NCBI GenBank assembly: GCA_046757165.1
Contig: JBHHXT010000035.1
Span: 1-34,751, forward strand
Source: a bacterium
Lineage (GTDB): Bacteria; Zhuqueibacterota; Zhuqueibacteria; Oceanimicrobiales; Oceanimicrobiaceae
Direction: 5' to 3'
DNA: 34,751 nt
Both the position numbers and the translations under genes were made by a program. Below the pieces are notes generated by a model. That model saw nothing but the letters and a program-made list of their open reading frames with translations, had not been told where the DNA came from and made no database searches. Shown here in pieces: positions 1 through 30,056 of the stretch; within the stretch, counting starts at the first letter, position 1; each line of letters opens with the position of its first letter.

Positions 1-121
1 AATCGCTCACCCATTCTGTCACAGGATAAGTTAACAATTTGTTTCTTAGATTCAACAGAAATGATACCCACACATTCATTTGAGGACGCAAGCTGCTGGT
101 ACCCTTCACGGTCCGACCCAC

Positions 122-138
122 TGTCTCACCATGCGACA
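122..138. promoter_or_regulatory. Putative enhancer-binding-protein (NtrC-family) site
   Basis: Imperfect inverted repeat TGTCTCA-CCA-TGCGACA (6/7 arm match), about 140 bp upstream of a -24/-12 element, which is typical UAS spacing. Confidence 0.35.
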
Positions 139-274
139 CCAAAATTTGTGTTCTGATCTCTTTTAAGACATCAGCGCTGTATGCCGATAACAGTATCGCC
201 GGCCACCTGTCGACTATGCCATTAAAATTAGAGTGTTACGGGTAAATAGTAAACAGACAAAAAGGAACGCTTAC

Positions 275-290
275 CGGTATAGTATTTGCA
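275..290 (+). promoter_or_regulatory. Putative sigma54 (-24/-12) promoter
   Basis: CGGTAT-AGTAT-TTGCA: GG(276-277)-N10-GC(288-289) with TTGCA at -12, about 75 nt before the ATG at 364. Confidence 0.5.
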
Positions 291-363
291 GAAACCCATC
301 GACTGTTTTTGAATGGCTCAATTCTCATGGATTGTGAATATTGGATTTAATTGGAGTACGCGA

Positions 364-2544
364 ATGCGGCGAAACTCTGGAGTCATTATCCCCTTCTTTC
401 TGGTTTTCTGGCTCATCCTGGGTTCCCAATCGGCACATGCATACATCGGACCAGGGGCGGGGTTTGCTTTCTTGACTTCTTTTCTGATGCTATTCGCCAG
501 TTTTTTTATGGCGTTTTTTACGTTGTTGACCTGGCCGTTGCGGGTCATCATTCGGTTCTTCAAGCGCCGCAAAGCGTTTGTGCATGCCAAAACAGACCGA
601 GTGGTAATTCTGGGTTTGGACGGACTGGAACCGACGATCACTGAGCGACTCTTGAAAGAAGGCAAGCTGCCGAATTTGCAAAAACTGCGTGAGCAGGGCT
701 CATACAGCCGTTTACAGACCACTTACCCGGCGATTTCTCCTGTGGCGTGGTCGGCGTTTTCTACCGGCGTCAATGCGGGGGGGCACAACATTTTTGATTT
801 TCTCTCGCGCCATAAACAGACGTATTTGCCTGAGCTTTCTTCCTCGAAGGTCGGGACACCGACGCGAAAAATCAGCATCGGACAATACGAGATTCCGCTC
901 GGCAAGCCGGTTGTGCGCTTCTTGCGCCGTAGCAAGAGTTTCTGGAAAATCCTCGGAGACCACGGCATTTTCAGTCACGTTTTGCGGGTGCCGATAACCT
1001 TCCCGCCCGAGAAAATCAATGGCGCCATGCTTTCGGCGATGTGCGCGCCCGATCTGTGGGGCACGCAAGGAACCTTCTCCCTGTTTACAACAGACGAGTC
1101 GATCGATCCTATCAAGGAAGGCGGAGACACTTCGATTGTCAAAAGAACAGGCAACCGCATCGAGGGCGCCATCAAGGGGCCGGAGAATTCTATCAAAAAG
1201 AGCAAGGAGCAAATCACGTTGCCCTTTGTCGCCCAGATTCTGAACGAGGATGAGGCGGAGCTCGTCATCGACAAACAGAAGATTCACCTGAAGAAAAACA
1301 CCTACACACAGTGGATCGAACTCAAGTTCAAGGCCGGCTTTGGTATCAAGGTCCAGGGGATTGCACGTTTCTACCTGTTGGACACCCGGCCTCATTTTCG
1401 GCTTTACATGACGCCGATCAATATCGATCCCGAGAATCCGGCTCTGCCGATTTCGTTTCCTTACTTTTACTCGGTCTATCTTGCCAAACTGTTCGGCAAG
1501 TATGCCACGCTCGGATTAGCGGAGGATACCTGGTCCTTGAACGAGGGCATCCTGAGCGAAGATGCTTTTTTGGAGCAGGCATATCTGATCCATGAGGAGC
1601 GCGAGAAACAATTCTTCCATGCGCTGGGCAAAACGAAGAAAGGGCTGTGCACGGTGGTCATCGATGCTACCGACCGTATTCAGCACATGTTCTTCAGAAC
1701 CCTGGAAGATGACCATCCGGCCAACCGGAACAAAGAAACGAAACGGTACAAACAAGTTATCGAAGACATGTACATCAAGATGGACGGGCTGGTCGGCCGA
1801 ACGATGGAGAAGATCAATCCTGGTGATGTTTTCATGGTCATTTCCGACCACGGTTTCAAGTCCTTCAGGCGGGGCATCAATTTGAATACCTGGCTCAAGG
1901 AGAACGGTTATTTGACGCTGGAGGCAGGCGTTGAGAAAACAGGCGAGTTCTTCCAGGGCGTGGATTGGACGAAGACCAGAGCCTACGCGTTTGGGCTGGC
2001 CGGCATCTACTTGAATGTCAAAGGTCGTGAGAAACATGGTATCGTTGCACCTGGCGCGGAGTATGAAAAGCTGAAATCCGAGCTGATCGAAAAACTGTCC
2101 GGATTGGTTGACCCGCAGAATGGTGAAGTGGCTATCACCGAAATGTACGACAGCCACAAGATCTACAGCGGACCGTATGTCAACGAGGGCCCGGATTTGA
2201 TCAGCGGGTACAACATCGGCTATCGTATCTCCTGGAACGGGGCCACCGGGGTCGTGGGCGATGTCGTTTTCGAGGACAATGTCAAGGCGTGGAGCGGTGA
2301 CCACTGTATCGATCCGAAACTGGTGCCGGGGGTAATTTTCAGCAACAAGAAGATCACGGCCAGGACCCCGGCTTTGATCGATATGGCGCCGACCGTGCTG
2401 GACTTGTTCGGCGTTCCCAAACCCGGGTACATGAAAGGCCAAAACGTGTTCGATGAAAGTCTCAACGGCGCAAATGGCCGAAATCAGATAGTCGATCGTG
2501 GTGAAAAGGTTGAAAACAGGGAGGTTGCACCTGTCAATGAATAG
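364..2544 (+). CDS. Alkaline phosphatase superfamily protein (type I phosphodiesterase/nucleotide pyrophosphatase), membrane-anchored
   Basis: Motifs ILGLDG, TTYPAISPVAW (Ser nucleophile position), DRIQH, SDHGF, WSGDH. Start moved from 313 to ATG 364 because GGAG lies 7 nt upstream. N-terminus is a signal peptide (SAHA), then YIGPGAG, a TM helix and RFFKRRK. Confidence 0.88.
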   Translation: MRRNSGVIIPFFLVFWLILGSQSAHAYIGPGAGFAFLTSFLMLFASFFMAFFTLLTWPLRVIIRFFKRRKAFVHAKTDRVVILGLDGLEPTITERLLKEGKLPNLQKLREQGSYSRLQTTYPAISPVAWSAFSTGVNAGGHNIFDFLSRHKQTYLPELSSSKVGTPTRKISIGQYEIPLGKPVVRFLRRSKSFWKILGDHGIFSHVLRVPITFPPEKINGAMLSAMCAPDLWGTQGTFSLFTTDESIDPIKEGGDTSIVKRTGNRIEGAIKGPENSIKKSKEQITLPFVAQILNEDEAELVIDKQKIHLKKNTYTQWIELKFKAGFGIKVQGIARFYLLDTRPHFRLYMTPINIDPENPALPISFPYFYSVYLAKLFGKYATLGLAEDTWSLNEGILSEDAFLEQAYLIHEEREKQFFHALGKTKKGLCTVVIDATDRIQHMFFRTLEDDHPANRNKETKRYKQVIEDMYIKMDGLVGRTMEKINPGDVFMVISDHGFKSFRRGINLNTWLKENGYLTLEAGVEKTGEFFQGVDWTKTRAYAFGLAGIYLNVKGREKHGIVAPGAEYEKLKSELIEKLSGLVDPQNGEVAITEMYDSHKIYSGPYVNEGPDLISGYNIGYRISWNGATGVVGDVVFEDNVKAWSGDHCIDPKLVPGVIFSNKKITARTPALIDMAPTVLDLFGVPKPGYMKGQNVFDESLNGANGRNQIVDRGEKVENREVAPVNE

Positions 2545-4519
2545 GGTCACAAGGAGTGTCTGGCTGTTGGCCGGACTGGTGGTGAGTCTTTCTTGCATAA
2601 TTTGGGGTGCTTTCGGCTGCGACCAGTCGAGCGCTGATTCTGTCAGCAAGAAAGTCATCGTGCTCGGATTCGATGGCGTCGATCCACAGCTTTTGTCAAA
2701 GTATATGGCAGAAGGCCGGCTGCCCAATTTCTCGAAACTGGCAAACGTTGGCGAGTTCAAAACGCTGGGGACGAGCATCCCGCCTCAGAGTCCGGTCGCG
2801 TGGTCGAATTTTATCACGGGCATGAATCCTGGCGGACACGGCATCTACGATTTCATTCACCGGGACCCGGAGCTGATGGTGCCGATTTCTTCCACGACCA
2901 GCTCAGAGGGCTCTGCGACAACGATCAAAATCGGGAAGTGGATCATTCCGTTGTCGAGCGGGCATGTCAAGAATCTTCGCCAGGGCAAGACATTTTGGAA
3001 TATCCTGGAAGACCACGATGTCCCGACGCTTGTCTTCAAGGTGCCAGCGAACTTCCCGCCCGTAAAGTCAAAGGGAAAGACGCTCAGCGGTATGGGCACG
3101 CCGGATTTGCTCGGCAGTTTTGGTACGTTTTCCTTTTACACCGATGACCCACCTCCGAATCGCGATGACATCTCGGGGGGGGTCGTGTTGCCGGTCACGC
3201 TGATCAATAACAGCTTCGAGGCCACGCTGATAGGCCCAAAGAATGCCTTCCTGGAGGGGGAGCCGGATGCGGTGATTCCCTTTAAGGTCTGGCGGGACCC
3301 CGAAAATCCAACCGTCAAGATTCAGATTCAAGAAGAACAGATCCTGCTGCAGGAGAAGGAGTGGAGCGACTGGATTCAGGTAGAGTTTGACCTGCTTCCG
3401 GCCGGACTGCAGTCCGTTTCCGGCATTTGTCGCTTTTACCTGAAAGAAGTGCGTCCGAAGATGAAGCTTTACGTGACGCCCGTTAATATCGATCCTTCTG
3501 AGCCGGCGTTGCCCGTTTCGACCCCGGAGGACTACGTCGAGGACCTGCACAAATGCTGCGGGTATTTCTATACCCAGGGGATGCCGGAGGACACCAAAGC
3601 GCTCTCCTGGGGGGTCTTCGACCATTATGATTTTCACAGCCAGAGCCAGAATGTGCTGCTGGAGCGACTGCGGCTGTTTGAGCATGTGTACCGCGAGTTC
3701 AATGAGGGCTTGATGTTCTTCTATTTCTCGAGCACCGATTTAACCGCACACATGTACTACAACATGATCGATCCAGACCATCCCTCCTATGAGCCGGAAC
3801 TGGCGCGTAGATACGGCGAGATCATCGCCTCGGTTTATGAGAGCGTCGACGGTGTGGTCGGCAGGGTACTCGGGTCTATCGATGACAACACGACATTGCT
3901 GGTCATGTCAGACCATGGCTTCGCCCCGTTCAGGCGGGCGGTGCACCTCAATACCTGGCTTTTGAACCAGGGCTACATTGCTCTGGTCGACACGAGCAAG
4001 CAGGCGGAAAGCGAATATTATCAAAACGTTGATTGGGGCCGGACGAAGGTTTACGGCCTCGGCTTTAATGGATTGTATGTAAATCTCCTGGGTCGTGAAA
4101 AGTACGGCATCGTCAAGTACAGCGAGAAAGACAAGTTGTTGGATGACATCTCTCAGAAGTTGCTGGCGTTGCGCGACCCGGCGAATGGCAACAGAATCGT
4201 GGACCGCGTCTATCGGGCACAGGATATCTATTCCGGAAAAAACATTCGGTATGCTCCGGATTTGGTCATTGGCTACAACCGCGGCTATCGTGCTTCCTGG
4301 GAGACCACCATTGGCACCTTCCCCAAAGGGTGGATTTCCGACAACCTGGATCCGTGGAGCGGGGACCATTGTATGGCGGCGGAGCTGGTGCCCGGTATTT
4401 TTCTTTCGAACAGGAAGATCAAGGCAGACGCTCCAAAGTTGTACGACATGGCGCCAACGATCCTGGCTGAGTTCGGGATTAAACAGACGGATGAGATGGT
4501 GGGTGAGCCGATTTTTTAG
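2537..4519 (+). CDS. Alkaline phosphatase superfamily protein (NPP-type), probable lipoprotein; paralogue of the upstream gene
   Basis: Motifs VLGFDG, TSIPPQSPVAW, DLTAH, SDHGF, WSGDH, collinear with gene 364-2544. ATG 2537 overlaps the upstream stop, with GGGAGG upstream. Hydrophobic leader ends in AFGC. Confidence 0.88.
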   Translation: MNRVTRSVWLLAGLVVSLSCIIWGAFGCDQSSADSVSKKVIVLGFDGVDPQLLSKYMAEGRLPNFSKLANVGEFKTLGTSIPPQSPVAWSNFITGMNPGGHGIYDFIHRDPELMVPISSTTSSEGSATTIKIGKWIIPLSSGHVKNLRQGKTFWNILEDHDVPTLVFKVPANFPPVKSKGKTLSGMGTPDLLGSFGTFSFYTDDPPPNRDDISGGVVLPVTLINNSFEATLIGPKNAFLEGEPDAVIPFKVWRDPENPTVKIQIQEEQILLQEKEWSDWIQVEFDLLPAGLQSVSGICRFYLKEVRPKMKLYVTPVNIDPSEPALPVSTPEDYVEDLHKCCGYFYTQGMPEDTKALSWGVFDHYDFHSQSQNVLLERLRLFEHVYREFNEGLMFFYFSSTDLTAHMYYNMIDPDHPSYEPELARRYGEIIASVYESVDGVVGRVLGSIDDNTTLLVMSDHGFAPFRRAVHLNTWLLNQGYIALVDTSKQAESEYYQNVDWGRTKVYGLGFNGLYVNLLGREKYGIVKYSEKDKLLDDISQKLLALRDPANGNRIVDRVYRAQDIYSGKNIRYAPDLVIGYNRGYRASWETTIGTFPKGWISDNLDPWSGDHCMAAELVPGIFLSNRKIKADAPKLYDMAPTILAEFGIKQTDEMVGEPIF

Positions 4520-4634
4520 ACCTGCCAACGCTCTCGTCTAACAATATTCTGAACCTTTGCTGCTGGCCCGCGGGCACAACAGCAGGGCTGAAACGAGGAC
4601 AAAACAGACTGTTCGAACAAGTGAGGAGAACTCG

Positions 4635-4826
4635 ATGTTAGGACCAAAAATCAAATTGGAAAAGGAACTCTATGACCGTGTGAAAAAATTTTCCGAGGTG
4701 GCGGGCTACTCCTCTGTTGAGGAATTTATCACACATATTCTGGAAAAAGAGCTTTCGTCGGTAGATGAAACAGAAAGCGAGGACGAAATCAAAAAACGGT
4801 TGCAAGGCCTGGGATACTTATCGTAG
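4635..4826 (+). CDS. Small ribbon-helix-helix (CopG-like) protein with C-terminal RLxxLGY motif
   Basis: GAGGAG RBS before ATG 4635. The 63-aa product MLGPKIKLEKELYDRVKKFSEVAGYSSVEEFITHILEKEL...EDEIKKRLQGLGYLS fits a strand-helix-helix pattern plus an acidic linker and LGY tail. Confidence 0.8.
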   Translation: MLGPKIKLEKELYDRVKKFSEVAGYSSVEEFITHILEKELSSVDETESEDEIKKRLQGLGYLS

Positions 4827-4859
4827 AAGACGCAGGGACGCAGGAAAGGCGCAACAAAC

Positions 4860-5681
4860 ATGGATTTGATCAACAAAATACTGAGTTCAGTCTTTAACAT
4901 TTTGTTTCTGCCGTTCAAGAACGTTGACCCGGTTTGGGCCATGCTGGCAATCTCTGCGGTAACCGGCGTTGTCATGCTGCTGGTTTTCAAGGCGACCTCA
5001 GACCAGGCCGGAATCAAACGAGCCAAGAATCTGGTCAAGGGGCACTTTCTTGCCATCCGGCTCTACAAGGATGATATCGGTCTGATGCTGGACACGATGA
5101 AGAATATCATCTCGAGTAACCTGCTCTACATGAAGCAGTCGTTGCGGCCGATGTTGTTTCTGATGGTGCCGGTTGGCATCGTCCTGATTCAGCTCGGCAT
5201 TCGCTACGAGTTTCGCCCGCTGAGAACGGGCGAAAGGGTGGTGGTCACGCTAGGTGTGGCCGATGACTCGGTCGAGCTCAGCGAAGTGGAGCTGATACTG
5301 CCTGCCGGTCTGGTTGCGGAGATGCCGCCTGTACGCATCGAGCAGGTGCGGGAGGTCAACTGGCGGATCAGGGCAGAGAAGGCTGGTGTGTTCACCCTGT
5401 CCTTCAAGTACGGCGACAAAGTGGTCGAGAAGCGCTTGCAGATCGTGGATTCGCTTGTTCCAATCACGGCACAAATAGCGAGTCATGACCTGGGAATCAC
5501 GCTGATGAATCCGGCAGAGGCCAGTCTGCCGAGCGGCTCGTTTGCCTCGGTGGTTTCAATTTTATACCCGAAAAGAGAGGCTGAGTTTTGGGGCATCACC
5601 ATGCATTGGTTGGTTGCCTTTTTTGTTTTTAGCCTGATTGTGGCCTTCGGGCTCAAAGGCACCCTTGGCGTCGAGGTTTAG
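4860..5681 (+). CDS. Membrane protein resembling DUF106/EMC3/TMCO1 (Oxa1 superfamily) with inserted extracytoplasmic beta domain
   Basis: Amphipathic N-helix, TM1, FKATSDQ plus helical hairpin, YMKQSLRPML leading into TM2, a ~130-aa beta-rich insert, then a C-terminal TM HWLVAFFVFSLIVAFGLK. Family recognised by eye. Confidence 0.65.
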   Translation: MDLINKILSSVFNILFLPFKNVDPVWAMLAISAVTGVVMLLVFKATSDQAGIKRAKNLVKGHFLAIRLYKDDIGLMLDTMKNIISSNLLYMKQSLRPMLFLMVPVGIVLIQLGIRYEFRPLRTGERVVVTLGVADDSVELSEVELILPAGLVAEMPPVRIEQVREVNWRIRAEKAGVFTLSFKYGDKVVEKRLQIVDSLVPITAQIASHDLGITLMNPAEASLPSGSFASVVSILYPKREAEFWGITMHWLVAFFVFSLIVAFGLKGTLGVEV

Positions 5682-5698
5682 GTTACCACAGCAGCACA

Positions 5699-5721
5699 GC
5701 TCAGGCTGAAGAAGCCTGAGC
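5699..5721. terminator. Stem-loop (possible weak terminator or processing/stability hairpin)
   Basis: GCTCAGGCT-GAAGA-AGCCTGAGC, a perfect 9-bp stem just after the stop at 5681. The U-tract is poor. Confidence 0.4.
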
Positions 5722-5770
5722 ATTCTGATTGTGAATGCGGAGTTGAGACGATTGCAGACAAAGGAGCGAC

Positions 5771-6655
5771 ATGAGCTACACGTTACTTTCTTTCAAGACG
5801 AGTGAAGAGCATGATCTCGAGCAATGGAATGACCGCAGCCTGGAAGGTGAGCTGCAGAGTTTCGAGGGACGGACACTAGTTCGTATCTTTGATCAATTTC
5901 TGGGGAGCTCCAACGCACGCATCCTGGAAGGCGGGTGTGGCTTTGGCGCCTGGTGTGAGTGGTTCCGTAAGCGGGGACATGAGATCGTCGGGATTGAGTA
6001 CGACAAAGACATCGTTGCGCAGGCGAGGAAATTCAAGCCGGATGTGGCGGTAGAGCTGGGCGACATCACCCGCCTTGATTATCCCGACAACTCCTTCGAT
6101 GCGTACATTTCTCTGGGGGTCATCGAACATTTCGAGCACGGCCCTGAACAAGCCCTGCGAGAAGCCCATCGTGTTCTCAAACCGGGTGGTCTGGTTTTTA
6201 TCACCACGCCATGGCTCACGGTGTTGCGAAGATCTATTGCTCACCCAATCCGGAATCTATATTTTCTCAAGAGAAAACTGAAACGCCAGCCCAACTACTT
6301 CTGGGAATATCGCTTTACGAAGATGGAACTACGGACCTATCTGGAGAAAGCAGGGTTCGAAATCATTCATGAGGACATCGACGATTATGAATCGGATGTC
6401 GATGATCGTCACATCGGACTTTGGGCGGATTGGTTTTTCTTGCGCAAACAAGGTGGCGAAATTTGGGAGTTAGACAAGGCAGGGAGATTTGTCTTGAAGG
6501 GGTTGAAGCTGCTCTTTCCGGCGTCCTGGTTTTGCTCCGGGCTGCATCTTGTCGCCAGAGCGAAGAAAGAAGTCGTCACGTCGTCTGCCGAGGAGACGAG
6601 CAACGACGGCAGGGATGGAGAAAATATCAAGACATCTATTGAAAAAGTCGCTTGA
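5771..6655 (+). CDS. Class I SAM-dependent methyltransferase
   Basis: ILEGGCGFG motif I, GDITRLDYPDNSFD, GVIEH, RVLKPGG. AAGGAG RBS. Confidence 0.9.
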   Translation: MSYTLLSFKTSEEHDLEQWNDRSLEGELQSFEGRTLVRIFDQFLGSSNARILEGGCGFGAWCEWFRKRGHEIVGIEYDKDIVAQARKFKPDVAVELGDITRLDYPDNSFDAYISLGVIEHFEHGPEQALREAHRVLKPGGLVFITTPWLTVLRRSIAHPIRNLYFLKRKLKRQPNYFWEYRFTKMELRTYLEKAGFEIIHEDIDDYESDVDDRHIGLWADWFFLRKQGGEIWELDKAGRFVLKGLKLLFPASWFCSGLHLVARAKKEVVTSSAEETSNDGRDGENIKTSIEKVA

Positions 6656-6667
6656 TTGAGTTATATT
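6639..6667 (+). promoter_or_regulatory. Putative sigma70-type internal promoter for sat-cysC
   Basis: TTGAAA(6639-6644)-N17-TATATT(6662-6667) in an AT-rich patch about 50 nt upstream of sat. Confidence 0.45.
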
Positions 6668-6715
6668 TATTGATTTTATGTTATCACCGAACCAATCACA
6701 AAAGGGAACAAGCTT

Positions 6716-7879
6716 ATGGATTTAGTCGCGCCACACGGCGGGAAGCTCATCGACCGCGTACTCAAGGGGGATGAGCGTGCAGCCGCTATCGAGAAGAGCA
6801 AGAGTTTACGAAAGCTACCGTTGAATGCCACCTCGGTTTCTGACCTGGAGCTTATTTCGATCGGGGCGTGCAGTCCCCTGACCGGATTCATGAAAAAGGC
6901 AGATTACGAGAGTGTTGTCGAGAATATCAGATTGGCGAACGGCATCGTATGGTCTATCCCAATTACGCTGGCCGTCTCCCGGTCATTTGCCGATGAGCTG
7001 AAAGATGGGGAAGAAATCCTGCTCACGACCGAAGGGGACACGCCGCTGGCCATCATGAGGGTGGAAGAGAGATTTACCTATGACAAGGAGCGGGAGGCGA
7101 AAAAAGTCTACAAAACCACCGAGGAGGCGCATCCGGGTGTGGCCAGGCTGCTCAGACAGGGCGAGGTTCTGCTTGGCGGCGATATCCAGCTCATCAACCA
7201 TGTGCCCGACCTGCCGTTCGAGGATTTTCGCCATGAGCCGGCGGTGACCAGGCGGCTTTTCAAGGAGCGTGGTTGGAAGACTGTGGTCGCTTTCCAGACA
7301 CGCAACCCGATTCACAGGGCGCACGAGTATCTGACCAAAGTTGCGCTCGAAAGCGTGGACGGTTTGCTCATTCATCCGCTCGTCGGCGAAACGAAATCCG
7401 ACGACATTCCCTCCGATGTGCGCATGCAGTGCTACAAGATCATGATGGAACAGTACTACAACCCGAAGCGGGTCATGTTGAGTGTGTTCCCTGCCGCGAT
7501 GCGGTACGCGGGTCCACGCGAGGCGATTTTCCACGCGATGGTGCGCAAGAACTATGGCTGCAGCCACCTGATCGTCGGTCGGGACCATGCTGGCGTTGGC
7601 AGCTACTATGGCACGTACGAGGCACAGGAGGTTTTCGAGCAATTCACACCCGATGAGCTGGGCATTGTGCCGCTGAAATTCGAGCACGCGTTTTATTGCA
7701 AGCGCACCAGACAGATGGCGACGGACAAGACGAGCCCCTCGTCCGAACCGCATGAGCGGTTGTTCCTGAGCGGCACGAAGGTTCGGGAAATGCTCTCTCG
7801 GGGTGAGCTCCCCCCTGAGGAGTTCACGCGGCCGGAGGTGGCAAAAGTTCTGATCGAGAGCTACAAGCGTAAGAGTTAG
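6716..7879 (+). CDS. sat: Sulfate adenylyltransferase (ATP sulfurylase)
   Basis: PHGGKL, AFQTRNPIHRAHEY, MRYAGPREA, IVGRDHAGVG, LSGTKVREML motifs. Confidence 0.97.
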   Translation: MDLVAPHGGKLIDRVLKGDERAAAIEKSKSLRKLPLNATSVSDLELISIGACSPLTGFMKKADYESVVENIRLANGIVWSIPITLAVSRSFADELKDGEEILLTTEGDTPLAIMRVEERFTYDKEREAKKVYKTTEEAHPGVARLLRQGEVLLGGDIQLINHVPDLPFEDFRHEPAVTRRLFKERGWKTVVAFQTRNPIHRAHEYLTKVALESVDGLLIHPLVGETKSDDIPSDVRMQCYKIMMEQYYNPKRVMLSVFPAAMRYAGPREAIFHAMVRKNYGCSHLIVGRDHAGVGSYYGTYEAQEVFEQFTPDELGIVPLKFEHAFYCKRTRQMATDKTSPSSEPHERLFLSGTKVREMLSRGELPPEEFTRPEVAKVLIESYKRKS

Positions 7880-7925
7880 TGCAACGAACGATGAAACCTG
7901 ATAACGTCGGAGGTTAAGAAGTCAA

Positions 7926-8516
7926 ATGGCAAATTCTGAAAAAGCATGCACCGTCTGGTTTACAGGGTTACCGTCTTCCGGAAAATCAACCCTGGCAGTT
8001 CTGCTGGAAAAAGAAATCAAGAAACGCGGCCGCAACGTCGAAGTTCTCGACGGCGATGTTGTCAGAACCAATCTGAGCAAGGGTCTCGGGTTTAGCAAAG
8101 AGGACCGGGACACGAACATAAAACGCATTGGGTTTGTCTGCCATCTTCTGTCTCGCAACGGCACGTTTGCGATTTCTGCTGCGATTTCACCCTACAAAGA
8201 GGTGCGAGACGAAGTGCGCGAAATGATTGGCAGCTTTGTCGAAGTGTTTGTGGATTGCCCGGTTGAAGAGTGCATCAAACGCGATGTCAAGGGGCTCTAC
8301 AAAAAAGCGCTGGCTGGCGAAATCAAGGAGTTCACCGGGGTTTCGGATCCGTATGAGCCCCCTGTAAACCCGGAGGTGGCCGTCAAAACTGCGAACGAGG
8401 AGCCGCAGGAAAGCATGCAGAAGATCGTGGCCAGGTTGGAGGAGCTGGGCTACCTGGCGAAAAACGGCATTGCCGAAACCGTGGCAACGGATGCGAACGT
8501 GACTGCTGTTGAATGA
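7926..8516 (+). CDS. cysC: Adenylyl-sulfate (APS) kinase
   Basis: [13 protein letters not shown]-loop, [44 protein letters not shown]. Confidence 0.97.
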
Positions 8517-10649: not shown

Positions 10650-11046
10650 AGCTCAACTCATCATCATTCTGCTGAGTCTGTCTCTCTTTCTGTTCGTGCT
10701 CAATTTGCTCAGAAAGAGAAAGTTGAAAATCGAGCATTCCATCCTCTGGTTGTTTGTCAGTGTCGCGATCTTGACTGCTTCGATCTGGCCTGAGCTTGCG
10801 GATAGCGTGGCGCTCTTTCTCCGCGTTGAATATCCGCCGGCGCTTTTTCTCTCTGTCGCCATCTTCTTCTCTCTGGCGATTTTGATGCATTTTTCCATCG
10901 AGCTATCGAAACTGAAAGACCAGAACAAGAACCTGACTCAGGAGCTCGCGATCACCAAGAATCTCGTTACCAAGCTCACAACAAGGACCGACAAACTGAA
11001 TGACAGTCACGACGCTCACGAAAGAGAACACGCCGCTTTGGAATAG
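10639..11046 (+). CDS. DUF2304 family membrane protein
   Basis: Three TM segments, RKRKLKIEHSILW, YPPALF, C-terminal coiled coil LSKL...LTQELAI. Overlaps the GT2 stop, the usual GT2-DUF2304 pairing. Confidence 0.85.
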   Translation: MPLRAQLIIILLSLSLFLFVLNLLRKRKLKIEHSILWLFVSVAILTASIWPELADSVALFLRVEYPPALFLSVAIFFSLAILMHFSIELSKLKDQNKNLTQELAITKNLVTKLTTRTDKLNDSHDAHEREHAALE

Positions 11047-12037
11047 ATTTCTACAAAAACATCCCAACACCAACATGTACCAACTGCTGGGGTGGAAGAC
11101 AGTTTTTGAGAGCGTTTTCGGGTACACCCCCCACTATCTTCTCACATTGGATGCCAGAGGCGAGCCGCAGGGCATTCTGCCAATGTTCCTCATGAGCGAT
11201 ATTTTCAGGCGCAGATACCTGGTGTCGAATCCTTTTTCCAACTTTGCCGGCATTTGCGCCAATGAGTCGAAAAGCGAGGCGCTTTTGTTCGCTGAAGCGG
11301 TCCGGATAGCGCAAACCTGCCAGGTCCAGTACGTTGAGTTTCGCCAACTGCGAGAACCGCTGCACGGAGAGCTGCCAGTGAAGAAAAGCTTTGTGACCCT
11401 TATGCTGTCGCTCTCCAACGACCCGGAAGAGCACTGGCGCGCCCTAACCTCCCGCAATCGAAACAAGATAAGAAAAGCAGAGAAGAACGGCTTGACCGTC
11501 GACTTCGGCATGCAGTATCTGCCGGATTTTCATCGCGTTTATGCCATCAATCTGCGCCATCTCGGCACGCCGATCTTTCCATACAGGATGTTCGAGACCG
11601 TGGCGCACGTGTTCAAGGATCAGGTCGATCTGCTGGTGCTGAAGCGCAACGATCAAGTGGTTTCAGCCATGTTTCTATTCAAATTCAAGCAGACGATTTC
11701 GGAGCCGTGGGTGGCCTCGCTGAGAGAGTTCAACAAGATCTACGTCAACAACTATCTCTACTGGCAAGCGATCAAGTATGCCTGTGAAAACGGCTTCCAG
11801 ACGTTTGATTTCGGGCGCTCGACCGTTGACACCGGGACATACAAGTTCAAGCGGCAGTGGGGCGCTGAGCCGGTGCAACTGCACTATCAGTACTTCCTGA
11901 ATGTGGCCGGCAAGGTTCCGGTCGTGGACGCAAACAACAACAAATATCAGCAGATCATCGAGCTCTGGAAACGGCTGCCCCTGGCGCTGACCAAGTTCGC
12001 CGGGCCGCGCCTGGTACAATATTTGCCCGAGCTTTAG
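11000..12037 (+). CDS. FemAB-like GNAT-fold protein (XrtA/PEP-CTERM-system-associated type)
   Basis: RNKIRKAEKNGL, YAINLRHLGTP, NNYLYWQAI, FDFGRST, YKFKRQWGAEP, WKRLPL. Confidence 0.85.
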   Translation: MTVTTLTKENTPLWNRFLQKHPNTNMYQLLGWKTVFESVFGYTPHYLLTLDARGEPQGILPMFLMSDIFRRRYLVSNPFSNFAGICANESKSEALLFAEAVRIAQTCQVQYVEFRQLREPLHGELPVKKSFVTLMLSLSNDPEEHWRALTSRNRNKIRKAEKNGLTVDFGMQYLPDFHRVYAINLRHLGTPIFPYRMFETVAHVFKDQVDLLVLKRNDQVVSAMFLFKFKQTISEPWVASLREFNKIYVNNYLYWQAIKYACENGFQTFDFGRSTVDTGTYKFKRQWGAEPVQLHYQYFLNVAGKVPVVDANNNKYQQIIELWKRLPLALTKFAGPRLVQYLPEL

Positions 12038-12057
12038 AGGTGTTCTCAGCTAAGCTT

Positions 12058-12933
12058 ATGAAAAACATCCTGACGTTTGACATCGAAGATTGGTATCACC
12101 CCAATCTCGCCGACAAAGAGCTGCTCAACGATCTGCCCCTCGAAGACCGCGTTGAGGCGCCTACCTTACGAATTCTTAACATGTTAGATGAAACAAACAA
12201 CAAGGCGACCTTCTTCGTCGTCGGGGATGTTGTGGAAAAATTTCCAAACCTGGTAGCAGAAATGGTTCGGCGAGGCCACGAAGTTGGTTCTCACGGCCAT
12301 CGACACAATTTGGTCTATCAGGTTACAAAAGCTCAGTTTGAAACAGATTTGACTCAGGCCCTGAAAACGCTTGAAAAAATCACGAACCGCCGGGTGCTCG
12401 GCTACCGTGCGCCTTCCTGGTCGCTTGGCCAACGGACCCCATGGGCCTGGCACGTGCTGAATGAGCTTGGTTTTGCATACGACTCTAGTTTGTATCCATT
12501 TGAAACATTTTTGTACGGCGACAATGGGTCGCCGCGATTCGAGTTTCAAGTAGAGCTGCCGGATGGAGGAACCTTCAGAGAAATCCCTCCGTCTGTGGCT
12601 GAAGTTCTTGGCAAGCGTCTCCCGTTTTCCGGTGGGTTCTTTTTCAGGGTCGTGCCGTATGCACTCATCAAATGGGGGATTCGGCAGCATCATGCAGTGG
12701 GCAAGCCAGCCGTCATGTACCTCCATCCGTGGGAACTCGACGTCGACCAGCCACGCCTGAAGGTTGACGCCAGGAAGCGGTTCATCCTGTACGCGAATTT
12801 GGATAAGACGGAGCGCAAACTGCAGAGGTTGTTGCGAGAGTTCAGGTTCGTCTCGATCAGAGATTATTTGGGTTTAGATGACACGCTCCGTGGGTCCCGA
12901 GAAGATATTGTAACGACCCGCGAGGTCGCGTAG
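12058..12933 (+). CDS. Polysaccharide deacetylase (CE4, DUF3473/XrtA-system type)
   Basis: LTFDIEDW, ATFF, GHEVGSHGHRH, GYRAPSWS, YDSSLYP, SGGFFFR, YLHPWELD. Alternative GTG start at 12040. Confidence 0.9.
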   Translation: MKNILTFDIEDWYHPNLADKELLNDLPLEDRVEAPTLRILNMLDETNNKATFFVVGDVVEKFPNLVAEMVRRGHEVGSHGHRHNLVYQVTKAQFETDLTQALKTLEKITNRRVLGYRAPSWSLGQRTPWAWHVLNELGFAYDSSLYPFETFLYGDNGSPRFEFQVELPDGGTFREIPPSVAEVLGKRLPFSGGFFFRVVPYALIKWGIRQHHAVGKPAVMYLHPWELDVDQPRLKVDARKRFILYANLDKTERKLQRLLREFRFVSIRDYLGLDDTLRGSREDIVTTREVA

Positions 12934-14496: not shown

Positions 14497-14645
14497 GCGC
14501 TAGCGAATCAAAGCTTGCCGTTTTTTGGCAAAACTTTATTGAAAGATAGAACACAGATGGCGCGGATGAACGCAGCATACGTAAACATCTTGGGTTTCAT
14601 GGCAACAGGAAGTGCCGGAACACAAGCATCAGGAGAGTGATAGAC

Positions 14646-17600
14646 ATGAGTAAGTTCCAAAGCAGCCGCATTTCGGTCACCGTATTGCTGACCGCCATGT
14701 TTGCAGTCAGCTTTAGTACAGATGCTTTCCCGCAAATCAAGATTATGCCTTTGGGGAATTCGATTACGCGTGGCGTGACCGGCTCGACTGACAATGCCGG
14801 ATATCGCAACGATTTGGCGCAACTGCTCATCGGCGAAGGCATCTTTTTTGATTTTGTCGGTTCGCTCGTAGACGGCACCGGGTTCGATCCGAGCCACGAG
14901 GGGCATGACGGGTTTCGCGCCGACCAGATCTTGCAGAATATCAATACCTATCTCAACAACTCCAATCCAGATATGGTCATCTTGCATATCGGGACCAATG
15001 ATATTTCCAACGATCAAACGTCCGTGAGCACGCGTGATGACATCGCAGGAATCATCGACGCGATTCATGCCTTTGATCCGAGCATCAAAATTATTCTCTC
15101 GAGTATCGTGCCGCGCGACGACGAAAAGGATGCGCAAACCACGACTTTGAACAACCTGGTCGAAGCGCTTTTTTACACGAAGCGGGATGATGAGGGTCGC
15201 AACCTGTTCTATGCCGGGGCCAATGAGATTTTCAAACAGAATCCAACCTGGCAGACCGACTATCTCTCTGATAACGTGCATCCGACTGACGCCGGCTACA
15301 ACATCATGGGCGAGGTGTTTTTCAATGCCGTGATGGTCGCCTTCAACAGCACGACCACCGAGGTGACGGATAATTTTGAACGGTCCAGTCTGGGCATGAC
15401 CTGGGATGCCGATCCCGAATATGTGATTCAAAACGGTGACTTGGCGAACACCGCGACCAGCGGCGGGACCGATTGGGAGCAAATGGCGACCTACAAGGCG
15501 ATCAAGAATCCGACCAGCGTCGCCGTGCAGTGGGCGGCAGACGTGGACAATGCAGGTCTGACCGAGGCCGGCCTCGCCCTGCTCCTGGACGCACCTTCCC
15601 GCACTGCCGATGGCTACCTGGCCTGGATTACTCCCGGAGATAACCAGTTGCATCTCTGGACGATCAGGAACGGCGTCACCGACCAGGATCAACTGGTTGT
15701 GAATCCCCAGAGCCAGGCGTCGCCGCCGGCTGCCGGCTCGGTTCTCAGAGTTGATGTGGCGGTTTCGCTCAGCAACCTGCAATTCGACTACTATGTCAAT
15801 GATATCTTCGCCGGATCAGTGACGCTCTCCAATCCCGGCGTGACCGGCGAGCGCTATGCCGGCTTTATTTCGAAACACAGCTTGAGCAATGACATCGCGG
15901 AGTTTTCGTTGAAGAAAACCACCGACACCACGAAGCCCGACTTTGTCGACAATCTGGTCGCCAGCACACCGACCGCGACCACAATTACGTTAGGGTGGAC
16001 GGCAAAAGGTGACGACGGGAGCACCGGTCAGGCCTCGAGTTATGATCTGAGATTTTCGACCTTCAACATCAACGACGCGAATTTTGAGCAGGCCATCCCG
16101 GTAACCGGGGTTCCGGCGCCGGCGCTGGCCGGCACGCCGGAAAGTTTTGTTGTGACCGCGTTGCAACCGGGCACGCAGTATAATTTTGCCATCAAAGTGA
16201 TTGACGAGGCCGGCAATGTGTCAGATATTTCAAACATCGCCTCGGCCACGACAGTGGCTGGCAACGTTGTCGTGGATGATTTTAACCGGTCTGGGCTGGG
16301 GTCGAAGTGGACAACAGCTCCTGACTATACGATCGTCAACAATCAGTTGAGTAACACCTCTCTTTCCGACATCCAATGGAATGAGATGGCGGTCTATAAC
16401 GACCGCAAGAAGCCGACCGAGGTCTCCTTTAGGTGGGGGGATAACGCAGACGCAGGCGGCATTGACCAGGGTGGATTTCTCATCGTGTTCGGGACGCCGA
16501 GTGCGAATGCGAACGGCTATGCGATTTCCCGAAGAACCCAGACGAGCGAGCTTCGGTTGTGGGAGGTGGTCGATGGTGAGGTGACCAACGTCATCGAGAA
16601 GAATTCCTCCCCGGCCCTGTCCGCCCCGCAACCCGGCGACATTGTCAAAATACAGATCATCGGTGACGACGCGGCGAATAAATTTGATTTTTTCAAGAAC
16701 GGCGTCTTTGACGGACGAGTCGAGGACGTCAGCAAGATTCACGACCTGGGAGGGGATTACTGGGCCGGCGTGGCGCTGCGGGGCAATCGCAATAATGACC
16801 TCGATGACTTCACCATTCTGCTCGAGCTGGGCGCACCGACAAACTTTGTCCCGATCGCCGGGGAGGCGCAAGTGGACACCGTTAATCAGGAGCTCCCCAT
16901 TCCGTTGACGGTTCGCATAACGGATGATGCCGGCAGTCCCATCCAGGGCATCAACGTCAATTTTGCCGTCATCGCCGGCGGCGGCTCCGTCGATGTGGCA
17001 CCGCCGAAGGAGGATATCGTTCTGGAGGCAGAAAATGGTGTTTTGACTTCGCCCATGGTGTCCGCCACTGACGCTGCGGCTTCGAAAGGGGCTTATGTGC
17101 ATGTTCCTGACGGTACAGGGGGCGACGCCCAGAATCCAGGGATCGCCACCTACACCATCAACATAGAAACTGAATCCGATTACCTGATCTGGGGCCGTGC
17201 CATCTACCCGAATCCAAATGCCGACGCATTCAAGGTCATTGTGGACGGGGTGGCCTACAACTGGGACATTGGGCAGCGTGTTGGCCAGGATACCTGGCAC
17301 TGGGATGCGGTGACACACCGCGGCAGCGGAACGCCAAGAAATCCGGAAATCGATCCGGTGGTTCTGCACCTTGTCCCCGGTTTGCATACGATCAAAATTC
17401 AAGAGGCAAAGGATGGCGCCAAGCTCGACCAGTTCGTGATTACCAGGTTGAACTCAGGGTTCCTGCCGCCGGCCGACCAGGGTCCGGTGCAGGCCGGGGG
17501 CACGTTCACGGACGCAGATGGCCAGGCCTCGACCAAACTCAGACTTGGACCCGCGCCGGGCGTGAATCAAGTTCAAGCGACGGCCACCGGTTTTTCACCC

Positions 17601-20600
17601 CTCCTGTTCACGGCCACTGGCCGGGCAGGCCGGGTCAACGTCATCACCAAGCTCTCCGGCGACGGGCAAACCGGTGACCGTGGTCAGCAATTGGCGCAGC
17701 CGTTTGTGGTGCAATTGCGAGATGAGTTCGGAAATCTGGCAGGAGATGCCCCGACCACCTGGACCATCATATCCGGCAACGGCACCCTGTCGCAGACGAG
17801 CCCGGTGACAACTGATGCGCAAGGCCAGGCGCAGAATACGCTGACGCTTGCAACCGATACCGGGCTGAATCAAGTCCGCGTGACCGCGGCAGGGTATTCC
17901 GGCCAGGATATCATTTTTGTAGCTACACCGAATCCGGGGGCGGCAGCCGCCATTACGCTCCATTCCGGCGATAGCCAGGTGGGAACAGCCAGCAAGCCCC
18001 TGGCAACCCCGCTGCGCGTTTCGGTGACCGACGATATCGGAACGCCGGTTCCCAATCACAGTGTGACCTTTGCGGTCACCGGTGGGAGCGGCAGCGTCGC
18101 GCCGGTAACAACGACCACACAGGCTGATGGGACGGCTGAGACCGTCTGGACCCTGGGGTCGGAGATCGGGGACGTGCATCAGGTGCAGGCTACGGCGTTG
18201 GGCGTGCCGGGGTCCGTGATTTTCAATGCCAGTGCGGCGCCGCCGGTCAGCTTTGAGCCTATCTCGCCGCTGGCACACCAGGGCATCGCTGGCATCCCAC
18301 TGCCGGACTCGATCAAGATCCGTATCAAAGACGCGCTCGGCGAAACCCTGCCAGACTATGAGGTGGAGTTCAGCATCATCACCGCGGGTGGGTTTGAACA
18401 GGGCCATGTCAACGGCAGCACCGACCCTGTGACGGTGCGGACCGACCAGAACGGCATTGCCAGAGTGGAATGGCGGCTCGGGCCCCAGGCGGGCACCAAC
18501 AACAACAAACTGCGCGCCACGGCTTCATTTTCCAATAACCCGATCAATGGCGCACCGATCGAATTCACCGCCTCCGCTCAAATCGGCACAGCGACAACTC
18601 TGATCGAAATCTCGGGGAATAATCAATCCGGTTTCATCGATACACAATTGGCTCAGCCTTTTGTGGTGCAGGTCACGGATGGCAACAATCCGGTGGAAGG
18701 GTGGCTGGTGGCGTTCGAGATGGTTGCCGGCGGCGGTCATTTTGACAATGGCCTGACAACGAGGAATGCCCCCACGGACGCAAATGGCCGCGCCTCGGTT
18801 TTCTACACCCTGGGCAGCGTCTCCGGTACGCCGCAGAACCCGTTCAACAACGTTGTTCGGGCGGTGGCCGAAAACGCGGGACAAGGGCTGACGAATTCCC
18901 CCATCGAATTTCGTGCTTCGGCGCTGGCCTCCAGCGCTGCCAACTTGCAGCCGGCCGGCGGCGACAATCAAACCGGCGCTGCCGGTGAGCCTCTGCCGCA
19001 GCAAATCAAAGTGCAAGTCACGGACGCGGCGGGCAACGGCATCAACGGCCATGAGGTCGTCTTCAAAGTCACTGCCGGCGGCGGGACGCTGAATGGCGAA
19101 ACCGATACTCAGGTCTCTGAAATCACGGACGGCACGGGCAATGCCGCCGTGACCTGGTACCTCGGGGGCACGCTCGGCACCAATTCCCAGAAACTGGAAG
19201 CCCGGGCCAATGACGGCATCAACGACTTGAGTGGCTCCCCGATGGTGTTCCAGGCGAGCTCGTTTGCCGGAGCGGTGGACCCGACGGTATCAACCGTGAC
19301 CTCTGATTTGACTGCGGTTCAGGCCAACGGCCAGGATAAAGCGACAATTACGGTGACATTGACCGACAAATTCGGCAATGCTATCCCGGACAAGGCCATC
19401 ACCTTGATCTCGAGTGGCAATGGCAACATCTTCACGCAACCGCAAAACCTGACAGACGCCAACGGCCGGGCCACGGGAACCCTGGCCTCGACCGTTGCGG
19501 AGATCAAGACGATTACCGCCAGAATCATCGGCGGCCTCATGCTGGAGTCCTCGGTAGACGTTGCGTTCATCCCTGAGCCACCGGAGCGGGTGACGCTCAA
19601 TGACGGCAATAATCAGACGACCAATGTGGGTACGGCCCTGCAACGGCCCATCGAGGTGATCATCACAGACCGGTTCAACAACCCGGTCCCGGGCGTGACG
19701 GTCAGGTTTGAGGTCATCGAGGGTGGTGGGTTTATTCTCAACACAAATTCTCCGCCGCCGGGAGAGTCACAAGTGCAACACAATGAAACCGTGACCAACA
19801 GCGAGGGAAAAGCGTGGGCCAACTGGGTAGTCGGGCCCGCACCTGATACGAACACGGCGATTGCACGGGCGTTCTTCAGCAACCAGGAGCTCAGTGGTTC
19901 GCCGGTGACGTTTACCGCGATTGCGGTCAATGCGACCGCGGTGCGGATGCAATTGCATGGCGGCGGCACCCAGGAGAATGTCTTTGCCGGCACGAAACTG
20001 CCGCAGCCTTTGGAAGTGAAGGTCACTGACAACAGCGGCAACCCCGTGGCCGGCGTGTCGGTCAATTTCAATGTGACGCTCGGCGAAGGCACGGTGGAAA
20101 ATCCGGCGCCGAAGTCCAACCACCTCGGCCTCGCTCGCACCGCCTTTACGCTTGGACCGACAGTGGGCGCCAATGAAGTGGATGCTACAAACAGCAATCT
20201 CAGTGGCTCGCCGGTCATCTTTCGCTTCGAAAGCGTCACGGGCGGCCCTTCCAAAATTATGCGTGAATCCGGCAATGATGGCACAGCCACGGTGAACGGA
20301 GCGCTGGTCGTTTCTATCAAGATCACGGATTTGTTTGACAACCCGGTAGAGAATGCGGACGCGAACTTCGAGGTGGTGCAGGGTGGTGGCGGCATTCTCA
20401 GCCACGATGAGAAAAGCAATTCACTCGGCGTCGCGCGCGCGACGGTGCTCATGCCGCAAAATGCAGCGGAGGTGCTGGTCAAGGCCTCGTCTGACGACTT
20501 ACCGGGATTCTTCGTCACGTTTACCTTGCACGCGGTGGCGGGCTCGGCCGCCAATCTCTTGCTGTATGATGGCGACAACCAGGAAGGGACCATCGCGCGA

Positions 20601-22034: not shown

Positions 22035-22344
22035 GCTTTGAACTTTTTGTTGCATTTTTCCGCGAATGTGGCGGAATTCGGTAAGAATGAGTTAAGGAAG
22101 TGAATGGACTGTAACTTACCACAGGGAGTGTGAATTACACCTGATAGATGTTCTCGATGCTCTGAATCTGAGCTTTCTCTACTGCCCCACGATTGAACTG
22201 CTTCTTTGACTTGCTTCCTCGTGATTTATTTCCAAAAGTTGTCTGATGTCTTATGAACATTCTTGACATCCTTGTTCGGTTGTGCAAGAAATTTGCGAAT
22301 ACAGGAGGTAGGTTGGTATGGAGGATTTTGTTTGGAGAAGGAAA

Positions 22345-29786: not shown

Positions 29787-30056
29787 CAAAGAGTTAGTCA
29801 TCATGTGGTGTTACACAATTTTATCAGCCTTTTTTGGACCGCCCCGGGATCGGTTCTCTCAATTACCAAATTTTGACGTCGGAAATTTCTGCGAAACTCC
29901 TGAAAAACAGGTATAAATCTATTTGAAAATTAACCAATTTAAACATCGCTGCCGATCAGGTTGGTAGCGTTGTAGCTCCTTTCAGGGAGGGTGTTTCCTG
30001 TTTATGAAGACAATTTCCTCACTGATGTGCACCTGTTGACGAACCGACGAGGATTC

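Follow-up and report, generated by a model that had tools for sequence, protein, structure and literature searches.

Background

The sulfate donor 3'-phosphoadenosine 5'-phosphosulfate (PAPS) is made in the cytoplasm, where ATP sulfurylase (Sat) and adenosine 5'-phosphosulfate (APS) kinase (CysC) form the established pathway to it. The transferases LtaS, EptA and OpgB combine a multi-transmembrane anchor with an outer alkaline phosphatase (AlkP) domain that forms a Thr adduct and takes its phospho head group from a lipid. The Dlt and Pat systems (DltB/DltX/DltD and PatA/PatB) carry an activated cytoplasmic group through the membrane by attaching it to the Tyr of a short conserved peptide, from which an outer Ser enzyme collects it (PMC12148441, PMC13721041). 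The known bacterial polysaccharide sulfotransferases are described as PAPS-dependent P-loop enzymes (PMC11641403). N-glycan sulfation in Halobacterium salinarum requires in vivo the AlkP-fold proteins Agl30 (VNG1056C) and Agl31 (VNG1057C), the latter cytosolic, and the terms PAPS, donor and tyrosine have no occurrence in the available part of that paper's text (PMC11980604). Here we compare these systems with a 34,751-nucleotide stretch (the window) of a member of the Zhuqueibacterota (contig JBHHXT010000035.1, assembly GCA_046757165.1), in which a four-gene cassette encoding two AlkP-type proteins (AlkP-1 and AlkP-2), a 63-aa protein with an LGY tail and a 273-aa Oxa1-like membrane protein precedes sat and cysC.

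On balance we lean slightly toward the view that the cassette moves sulfate across the inner membrane on Tyr carriers, to be used by exported LGY-tailed glycan sulfotransferases. If so, it would allow polymers to be sulfated on the outer side of the membrane and would give an Oxa1-family protein a role besides insertion, and many "sulfatase-like" genes would be re-annotated as biosynthetic, adding rather than removing sulfate. It would also bear on the donor and mechanism of Agl30 and Agl31, points that their paper, in the part available, does not address (PMC11980604). No account of this system was found in the literature searched, most subscription papers and all supplements lying outside its scope.

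A conserved four-gene cassette

AlkP-1 (364-2544, + strand, 726 aa) overlaps AlkP-2 (2537-4519, +, 660 aa) by 8 nt, and the two are followed by the gene for the 63-aa ribbon-helix-helix (RHH)-LGY protein (4635-4826, +), which has the C terminus KKRLQGLGYLS, and by that for the 273-aa membrane protein (4860-5681, +). Further downstream lie sat (6716-7879, +; PF01747 and NF003166 above cut-off; one tblastn match in the genome) and cysC (7926-8516, +; PF01583, NF002059), each the sole copy found; the cassette genes are likewise single copy in the 6.1-Mb genome. None of the four cassette genes has an NCBIfam family above cut-off.

Relatives were collected by keeping the best 80 of 294 matches, which yielded 72 loci. 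Among the 60 with at least 4 kb downstream of AlkP-1, AlkP-2 is present in 56, the small protein in 58, the membrane protein in 57 and all three in 54, so the grouping of these genes is not due to chance. The nearest loci are labelled KSB1 or similar, and remoter ones come from Acidobacteriota, Aminicenantes, Zixiibacteriota, Thermodesulfobacteriota, Planctomycetota and others. Three Aminicenantes-type cassettes (L013, L016, L036) are followed by a pyridoxal phosphate (PLP) aminotransferase of class I/II. In a survey of 145 genomes of the phylum, 38 were AlkP-positive by a strong AlkP-1/2 match (E under 1e-100) and 107 negative; the Oxa1-like gene occurs in 35 of the 145, every one among the 38 positives.

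The gene coordinates, order and strand given for the cassette, sat and cysC in an initial annotation of the window hold throughout. It had described a tight four-gene unit preceding sat and cysC, which is borne out by the 54 complete loci; a class I S-adenosylmethionine (SAM) methyltransferase gene (5771-6655, +, PF08241), unmentioned there, lies between the cassette and sat. We do not count this methyltransferase as a core part; it is found in just 7 of 48 long loci and is probably a lineage-specific neighbour.

Paired AlkP domains predicted on opposite membrane faces

AlkP-1 and AlkP-2 are nucleotide pyrophosphatase/phosphodiesterase (NPP)-type paralogues with 38% identity, matching PF01663 at 97.6 and 121.6 bits, respectively, against a cut-off of 23. 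As first annotated, they carry PAISPVAW and PPQSPVAW, and this SPVAW stands where the formylglycine sulfatase signature C/S-x-P-x-R would be. The NPP-type two-metal ligand set (D, D/H, D/H, H) is invariant across 94 AlkP-1 and 43 AlkP-2 sequences; in AlkP-1, residues D86, S125, D437, H441, D495, H496 and H647 are kept in all 94 aligned. The nucleophile position of AlkP-1 (Ser125) is Ser in 94/94, and that of AlkP-2 (Ser85) is Ser in 42 sequences and Thr in one. Judging from motif spacing, Phe occupies the NPP phosphoryl-binding Asn position of both proteins, so that neither has what we take to be the NPP hallmark, a Thr nucleophile together with that Asn. The AlphaFold2 (AF2) model of AlkP-1 (pLDDT 89) has as its best Foldseek match the Xanthomonas NPP 7n1s/2gsn (7n1s E 5.7e-11), at about 11% identity.

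AlkP-1 begins with a predicted type I signal peptide (364..441, +), recognized by pattern and ending in AHA, followed by YIGPGAGF (442..465, +) as the predicted mature N terminus on the outer face, one long transmembrane helix, a basic patch (RVIIRFFKRRK) and the NPP-fold domain. The Tyr of this motif, Tyr27, is the proposed membrane-crossing carrier and is kept in 94/94 aligned sequences. Y[IV]GPG is present in 118 of 120 AlkP-1 homologues, the exceptions being one N-terminal fragment and one YGGPG, and in 96 of the 118 an AxA follows a hydrophobic stretch and stands right before the Tyr, other small-residue variants taking its place in the rest. Tyr27 is thus predicted to lie outside and the catalytic domain in the cytoplasm. 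AlkP-2 has a possible lipobox (AFG-C28), and its domain is predicted to be exported because homologues start with lipoprotein-like, twin-arginine-like or type I-like signals, as read by eye; since the signal type differs between homologues, AlkP-2 need not be a lipoprotein. Sequence patterns in the homologues therefore predict that the two AlkP domains occupy opposite membrane faces, in agreement with the initial annotation.

The small LGY protein and its modelled complex with AlkP-1

The 63-aa protein, whose gene is preceded by the ribosome-binding site GAGGAG, consists of an RHH-like body, an acidic linker and the LGY tail; it is acidic (isoelectric point, pI, 4.9), soluble and without an export signal, and its Tyr61 is encoded at 4815-4817. 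It has no Pfam RHH match. Its Atlas neighbours are CopG-like, with an Atlas RHH_1 cluster at 0.87, and two Lys on its N-terminal strand are conserved. Among 64 unfiltered BLAST matches LGY is retained in 62, the others being a wrong-frame piece and one LDY, a variant that loses the Gly and keeps the Tyr. LGY tails also end some CysC, CysD-type and DUF2061 membrane proteins.

A fold of AlkP-1 residues 66-698 together with the 63-aa protein gave a complex score of 0.72, whereas none of three controls exceeded 0.00. Among solved complexes 116 of 157 attain this mark, and among mismatched pairs 2 of 215 do; with alignments of the kind used here these counts apply only roughly. The runs share at least 90% of contacts, with partner pLDDT at least 74. 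Tail residues 52-62 contact the AlkP-1 cleft around the metal site (I124, F146, 227-237, 385-393, H441, D646 and C648), and the model supports binding of the LGY tail in the AlkP-1 active-site cleft.

A second RHH-LGY protein is encoded in the host genome just upstream of a sulfatase-fold gene that has no LGY tail (G000:C96, 15541-15813 and 14153-15613, - strand), a pair that looks as if the tail came in trans. LGY-ended DUF2061 and CysD-type proteins lie at L009 9608-9913, L021 9410-9751, L035 7036-8025 and L085 7697-8668.

The Oxa1-like membrane protein

The 273-aa protein has three transmembrane helices, a coiled coil after the first and an outer Ig-like insert (AF2 pLDDT 94). Structure comparison in the Atlas gave a TM-score of 0.72 to PF01956 (EMC3/TMCO1-type) clusters. 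The best structural match in VIA was chain 8 of the multipass translocon 7tut, which we take to be TMCO1 (Z 11.7, root-mean-square deviation 3.6, 136 residues aligned), a Z value short of the caution threshold that the tool sets for helical bundles; the match covers residues 18-273. YidC (3wo7) followed at Z 7.8. No Pfam match was found at E 0.01, and the nearest named Atlas cluster lies at 0.85, with PF01956 in 17%. Foldseek returned just Ig-like matches. With its three-helix core and cytoplasmic coiled coil, the modelled structure places the protein in the Oxa1 superfamily as a DUF106/EMC3/TMCO1-like member, so that the DUF106-like assignment made earlier finds its support in structure and has no Pfam match behind it.

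Link to PAPS and the candidate loaders

Among loci of at least 18 kb (n=48), sat, cysC or cysD is present in 17, and one of these or a mini-sulfotransferase in 28. The latter is a P-loop protein of about 190 aa, matching PF00685/PF13469 above cut-off in 6 of 6 scanned. Of the 72 loci, 23 carry an orthologue, and in 22 it is on the same strand and within 183 bp of the AlkP-1 or Oxa1-like gene. The copy in the host genome lies on another contig (C316), away from the window. A third, soluble NPP paralogue, AlkP-0 (AlkP-S), occurs in 21 loci, and no locus has both it and the mini-sulfotransferase. A strict either-or between these candidate loaders holds for loci and fails for genomes, seven of which have both. 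In two loci (L009, L019) Sat is fused to a further NPP paralogue, and CysC beside AlkP-0 usually has an extra LGY tail, which the cysC product of the window lacks.

At the genome level a strong APS kinase is found in 36 of 38 AlkP-positive against 67 of 107 other genomes, and APS kinase is encoded elsewhere in all ten genomes checked among those whose cassette locus shows none. The co-occurrence with PAPS genes that had been anticipated is seen in these counts. Neither a PF01077 sulfite reductase nor cysH was detected in the host genome, whose single PF01507 match is DndC-like. We thus set aside assimilatory or dissimilatory sulfate reduction and take the PAPS of the host to serve sulfation. 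That sole PF01507 match belongs to DndA/DndC-like DNA phosphorothioation genes (G000:C59, 15479-20941; named from sequence and context).

The earlier statement that neither cysH/cysIJ nor a P-loop sulfotransferase is present holds for the 16 open reading frames (ORFs) scanned in the window. For sulfotransferases it does not extend to the genome, which has three elsewhere: the mini-sulfotransferase on C316 and two on C90. A conventional sulfotransferase just upstream that would account for PAPS use had been named as evidence against the relay; the window has none, whereas in 22 of 72 loci the mini-sulfotransferase is an immediate neighbour of the cassette.

Exported enzymes with LGY tails

Another contig of the host genome, C28, encodes four multi-transmembrane sulfatase-fold (PF00884) proteins ending in LRxLGYxK, beside glycosyltransferase, GH39 and heparinase II/III-like genes. 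Homologues of these enzymes lie directly upstream of AlkP-1 in five relatives (L001, L003, L005, L018 and L041). The adjacency of C28 to the window is by synteny alone, with no exact end overlap and no linking contig; among read-derived contigs, the window start lies in a short one of higher depth. The LGY enzymes have T/S-x-P-S-x with Thr as the nucleophile in 21 of 24 and Ser in the rest, the Arg of CxPxR is present in 0 of 24, and they match S1 sulfatases in the PDB.

With a tail-centred profile (best 150 of 152 matches) and frame length as a proxy for the transmembrane anchor, tail-reaching matches in frames of at least 575 aa were found in at least 29 of the 38 AlkP-positive genomes (ten families) and in none of the 107 others. 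A domain profile gave at least 25 AlkP-positive and no other genomes among the matches listed (best 150 of 232). Shorter LGY-tailed matches are frequent without the cassette, and all 17 fetched have no N-terminal export or transmembrane segment. Because the long-frame matches are confined to AlkP-positive genomes and the short ones are not exported, these sequence profiles suggest that the cassette tracks the exported LGY enzymes specifically. A cytoplasmic subfamily with the nucleophile motif WTGAS and a WEKLKALGYA-like tail occurs in L207-L216, L219 and L220; its genomes have APS kinase and mostly no NPP-clade or mini-sulfotransferase match.

A Halopiger plasmid cluster encodes LGY-tailed sulfatases, an LGY-ending CysD-like protein and an AlkP-0-like NPP among glycosyltransferases, and hand translation of the cloning primers for Agl30 and Agl31, as given in the available part of the paper, yields LGY ends (PMC11980604). 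Haloarchaeal NPP relatives at L083 9011-11305 and L084 10543-14609 adjoin inorganic pyrophosphatase, or are LGY-tailed and stand beside DegT aminotransferase and GNAT genes.

A parallel architecture with YidC

Metagenomes were searched for the motif YIDPGTG, and 80 of 121 stretches with it were taken further. It sits after a signal or short leader and before a transmembrane helix, either stand-alone or, in 15 of these 80 loci, fused to a long domain. In seven fused loci scanned, six of the proteins match TagF-like PF04464 and six of the loci have an adjacent YidC-domain gene of 905-961 aa, in one of which a sulfatase domain is found (1/6, E 1e-6). Choline kinase/nucleoside triphosphate transferase or cytidylyltransferase genes occur in three fused loci. 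Sulfatase-fold genes neighbour the peptide in 11 of the 16 stand-alone loci scanned. Read together, these sequences suggest that an arrangement of YxxPG helix, inner transferase, Oxa1-family protein and outer AlkP recurs with another transferase and another Oxa1 branch.

The fused loci L109, L112, L119, L124, L142 and L155 place YIDPGTG-helix-TagF-like proteins next to a fusion that contains a YidC domain; LicA/LicC-type genes accompany some of them, and the loci likely represent an undescribed relay for phosphocholine or phosphonate export. Stand-alone YIDPGTG membrane peptides of about 50 aa (L090, L100, L110, L122, L131, L140, L151, L156, L163 and others) neighbour sulfatase-fold genes and a gene for a protein of about 490 aa that is mostly unannotated or methyltransferase-bearing.

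Proposed relay and alternative explanations

In the relay that we propose, Sat and CysC would make PAPS, and a loader, suggested by gene context to be the mini-sulfotransferase (on C316 here) or, elsewhere, AlkP-0/AlkP-S, would sulfate Tyr61 of the 63-aa protein. This protein would dock on AlkP-1 with its tail in the active site, as modelled, and the sulfate would move to Ser125, from which AlkP-1 might pass it to Tyr27 of the YIGPG N terminus. The Tyr27 peptide may then use the groove of the Oxa1-like protein to pass from one face to the other, which is the weakest step. Outside, AlkP-2 would accept the sulfate on Ser85 and load the LGY tails of exported multi-transmembrane enzymes, a role suggested by co-occurrence, and these, by analogy with Agl30/31, would hand it through their Thr/Ser nucleophile to surface polysaccharide. 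As paralogues, AlkP-1 and AlkP-2 would suit a single reaction, from LGY-Tyr to YIGPG-Tyr in one and the reverse in the other. We hold the exact order of these steps only tentatively. The likeliest crossing residue appears from the sequences to be Tyr27 rather than Tyr61, because Tyr61 sits on a soluble, acidic protein without an export signal, and the parallel YIDPG/YidC architecture also points to Tyr27 as the carrier.

The initial annotation had proposed that AlkP-1 takes sulfate from PAPS or APS; the PAPS link stands, but a mini-sulfotransferase is often part of the cassette in relatives and is encoded elsewhere in the host genome, so that direct use of PAPS by AlkP-1 is not required. Its idea of a Tyr-bearing peptide crossing the membrane is favoured by the LGY tail modelled in the AlkP-1 cleft, although it missed the likelier Tyr27. 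Direct delivery by AlkP-2 to a surface glycan we would replace, since AlkP-2 probably serves the exported LGY-tailed enzymes (found in at least 29/38 versus 0/107 genomes).

Several observations weigh against the relay. The surveyed genomes are related and the profiles were built from cassette loci, so the tallies are overstated, and the figure of 17 of 48 loci with sat, cysC or cysD stands without a locus-level background. With the queries used, neither loader is found in 10 of 35 full-cassette genomes and both are found in 7 (two of the ten loader-negative genomes have an AlkP-S-like match beside the cassette); the mini-sulfotransferase is present in 25 of 107 AlkP-negative genomes and missing, with the query used, in 14 of 38 positive ones. 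The two sulfotransferases on C90 could consume PAPS. Cytoplasmic LGY enzymes occur in genomes without an NPP-clade or mini-sulfotransferase match, and APS kinases and some P-loop sulfotransferases naturally terminate in LxxLGY, which may be a helix cap. In the modelled complex, Ser125 is absent from the interface list, Tyr61 is outside the 25 lowest-error pairs, the best-defined contacts involve the GYSS turn and helix B, outside the LGY tail, and a probable dimer was folded as one copy. A PDB sequence search with AlkP-1 gave nothing better than E 0.029, and two-metal NPP-fold enzymes are established for phosphoryl transfer. None of the 16 stand-alone YIDPG loci scanned has a YidC domain nearby. 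Agl30 and Agl31 are reported, in the part of the paper available, to be active with C-terminal tags, so a free LGY end is not needed in them (PMC11980604).

In one alternative the sulfation pathway is the same, but LGY and YIGPG serve for docking without forming covalent adducts. The mini-sulfotransferase would then make a small aryl or lipid sulfate that acts as the carrier, and the Oxa1-like protein would be only a dedicated insertase for the N-out helix of AlkP-1 or a conduit for the carrier. N-out single-span proteins are typical YidC clients, the LGY tails on CysC, CysD and DUF2061 proteins fit tethering, the firmest contacts of the AlkP-1 complex lie outside the tail, and the closest solved relatives of the mini-sulfotransferase, weakly matched (E about 1e-4), are small-phenol sulfotransferases (SULTs). 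Yet Tyr is kept where Gly is lost, Tyr27 is invariant (94/94), and the modelled tail lies in the catalytic cleft, a place in which mere tethering would keep substrate out; we regard this alternative as rather unlikely. It is very improbable that the 63-aa protein is a plain CopG-type operon repressor outside the chemistry, any relay then running from PAPS to AlkP-1 to Tyr27. The Atlas label of putative CopG regulator and the two conserved Lys on the N-terminal strand speak for such a role, which sits poorly with the pI of 4.9, the missing Pfam RHH match, an LGY tail in common with enzymes and passage of the modelled AlkP-1 binding test.

A relay of phospho groups, of nucleotidyl, phosphoglycerol or phosphoethanolamine type, with sulfur genes merely sharing an envelope locus, would account for the NPP-like fold and metal ligands. 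The YIDPG parallel uses cytidine diphosphate (CDP) donors, next to the cassette several loci show a PLP aminotransferase but lack sulfur genes, and haloarchaeal NPP relatives adjoin pyrophosphatase or DegT/GNAT/glmS genes. We consider it improbable in view of the abutting sulfotransferase, the Sat fusion and the APS kinase tallies, and no recurring CDP-donor genes were found among scanned neighbours of 12 loci without local sulfur genes. Finally, both AlkPs might be hydrolases, cleaning up 3'-phosphoadenosine 5'-phosphate (PAP), PAPS or nucleotide sugars inside and turning over sulfated or phosphorylated polymer outside, with the C28 enzymes as degradative sulfatases; the NPP family are hydrolases, C28 carries heparinase II/III-like and GH39 genes, and the LGY enzymes resemble S1 sulfatases of the PDB. 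With Thr (21/24) or Ser and no CxPxR Arg, however, most LGY enzymes cannot form formylglycine, hydrolases need no invariant insertase, carrier protein or Tyr27, and no sulfite reductase was detected in the host to use freed sulfate, which makes degradation quite improbable.

Setting these alternatives beside the Tyr-carrier relay, we can imagine a general route, possible though doubtful, in which signal peptidase exposes an N-terminal Tyr (YxxPG) carried by one helix, and this Tyr shuttles by way of an Oxa1-family protein devoted to it, being loaded inside by a transferase and unloaded outside by an AlkP. The cassette would be its sulfate version, and LGY tails bearing Tyr-O-sulfate would provide the common currency for a huge "sulfatase" family whose members, Agl30/31 included, would in fact be sulfotransferases; the TagF/YidC clusters would be its phospho version.

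Neighboring genes in the window

Positions 26-6000 are spanned gap-free by DNA contigs from two of four sequencing runs, all from one study that is possibly the source of the assembly. Downstream of cysC lie, in order, GT4, GT2, DUF2304, FemAB-like, deacetylase and PMT-like genes, and the FemAB-like and polysaccharide deacetylase products (11000-12933) pass the XrtA/PEP-CTERM-associated NCBIfam cut-offs (TIGR03019, TIGR03006). Tandem paralogous secreted proteins of about 2450 aa each (14637-21986 and 22318-29658) contain an SGNH esterase, FN3 and many Big_1 Ig domains and a FlgD-Ig/secretion-tail C terminus; the GC content of their genes is near 0.6 versus 0.5 in the cassette. A 1504-aa secreted protein with FG-GAP repeats and CBM96, cadherin-like and FlgD-Ig domains is encoded at 29991-34505.

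Comparison with known systems

The AlkPs resemble NPPs (Xanthomonas NPP 2gsn/7n1s, ENPP1/5/6; PF01663) in fold and two-metal ligand set, and differ from them in their low identity (about 11%), Ser for Thr, Phe for Asn, a beta insertion of about 190 residues and their pairing across the membrane. Like LtaS, EptA and OpgB, the C28 enzymes have a multi-transmembrane anchor, an outer AlkP domain and a Thr nucleophile; unlike them, they have no evident lipid donor and each ends in LGY. Agl30 and Agl31, in the available description, share with the C28 enzymes an AlkP/sulfatase fold that adds sulfate to glycans and an LGY end, and so match the proposed recipients rather than the cassette, a likeness drawn from fold and primer-read ends without direct sequence comparison. 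The three transmembrane helices and the coiled coil after the first are shared with the Oxa1 superfamily (archaeal DUF106/Ylp1, EMC3, TMCO1 and YidC). In contrast to that superfamily, the 273-aa protein is bacterial, confined to a single operon, one-to-one with the AlkP pair and equipped with an Ig-like outer domain, and its proposed task is to move a carrier peptide back and forth, as opposed to the insertion of many clients.

The cassette recalls Dlt and Pat in its invariant Tyr within short terminal peptides (Tyr27 and Tyr61), where an adduct would be expected by analogy. No MBOAT match was found among the window ORFs scanned, and SGNH domains occur solely in the two giant surface proteins. 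Dlt/Pat and the cassette share logic only and have no homologous component: in place of the Dlt/Pat proteins the cassette has an NPP-fold pair and an Oxa1-family protein, the group proposed to cross is sulfate, and there are two Tyr motifs, a C-terminal LGY and an N-terminal YIGPG.

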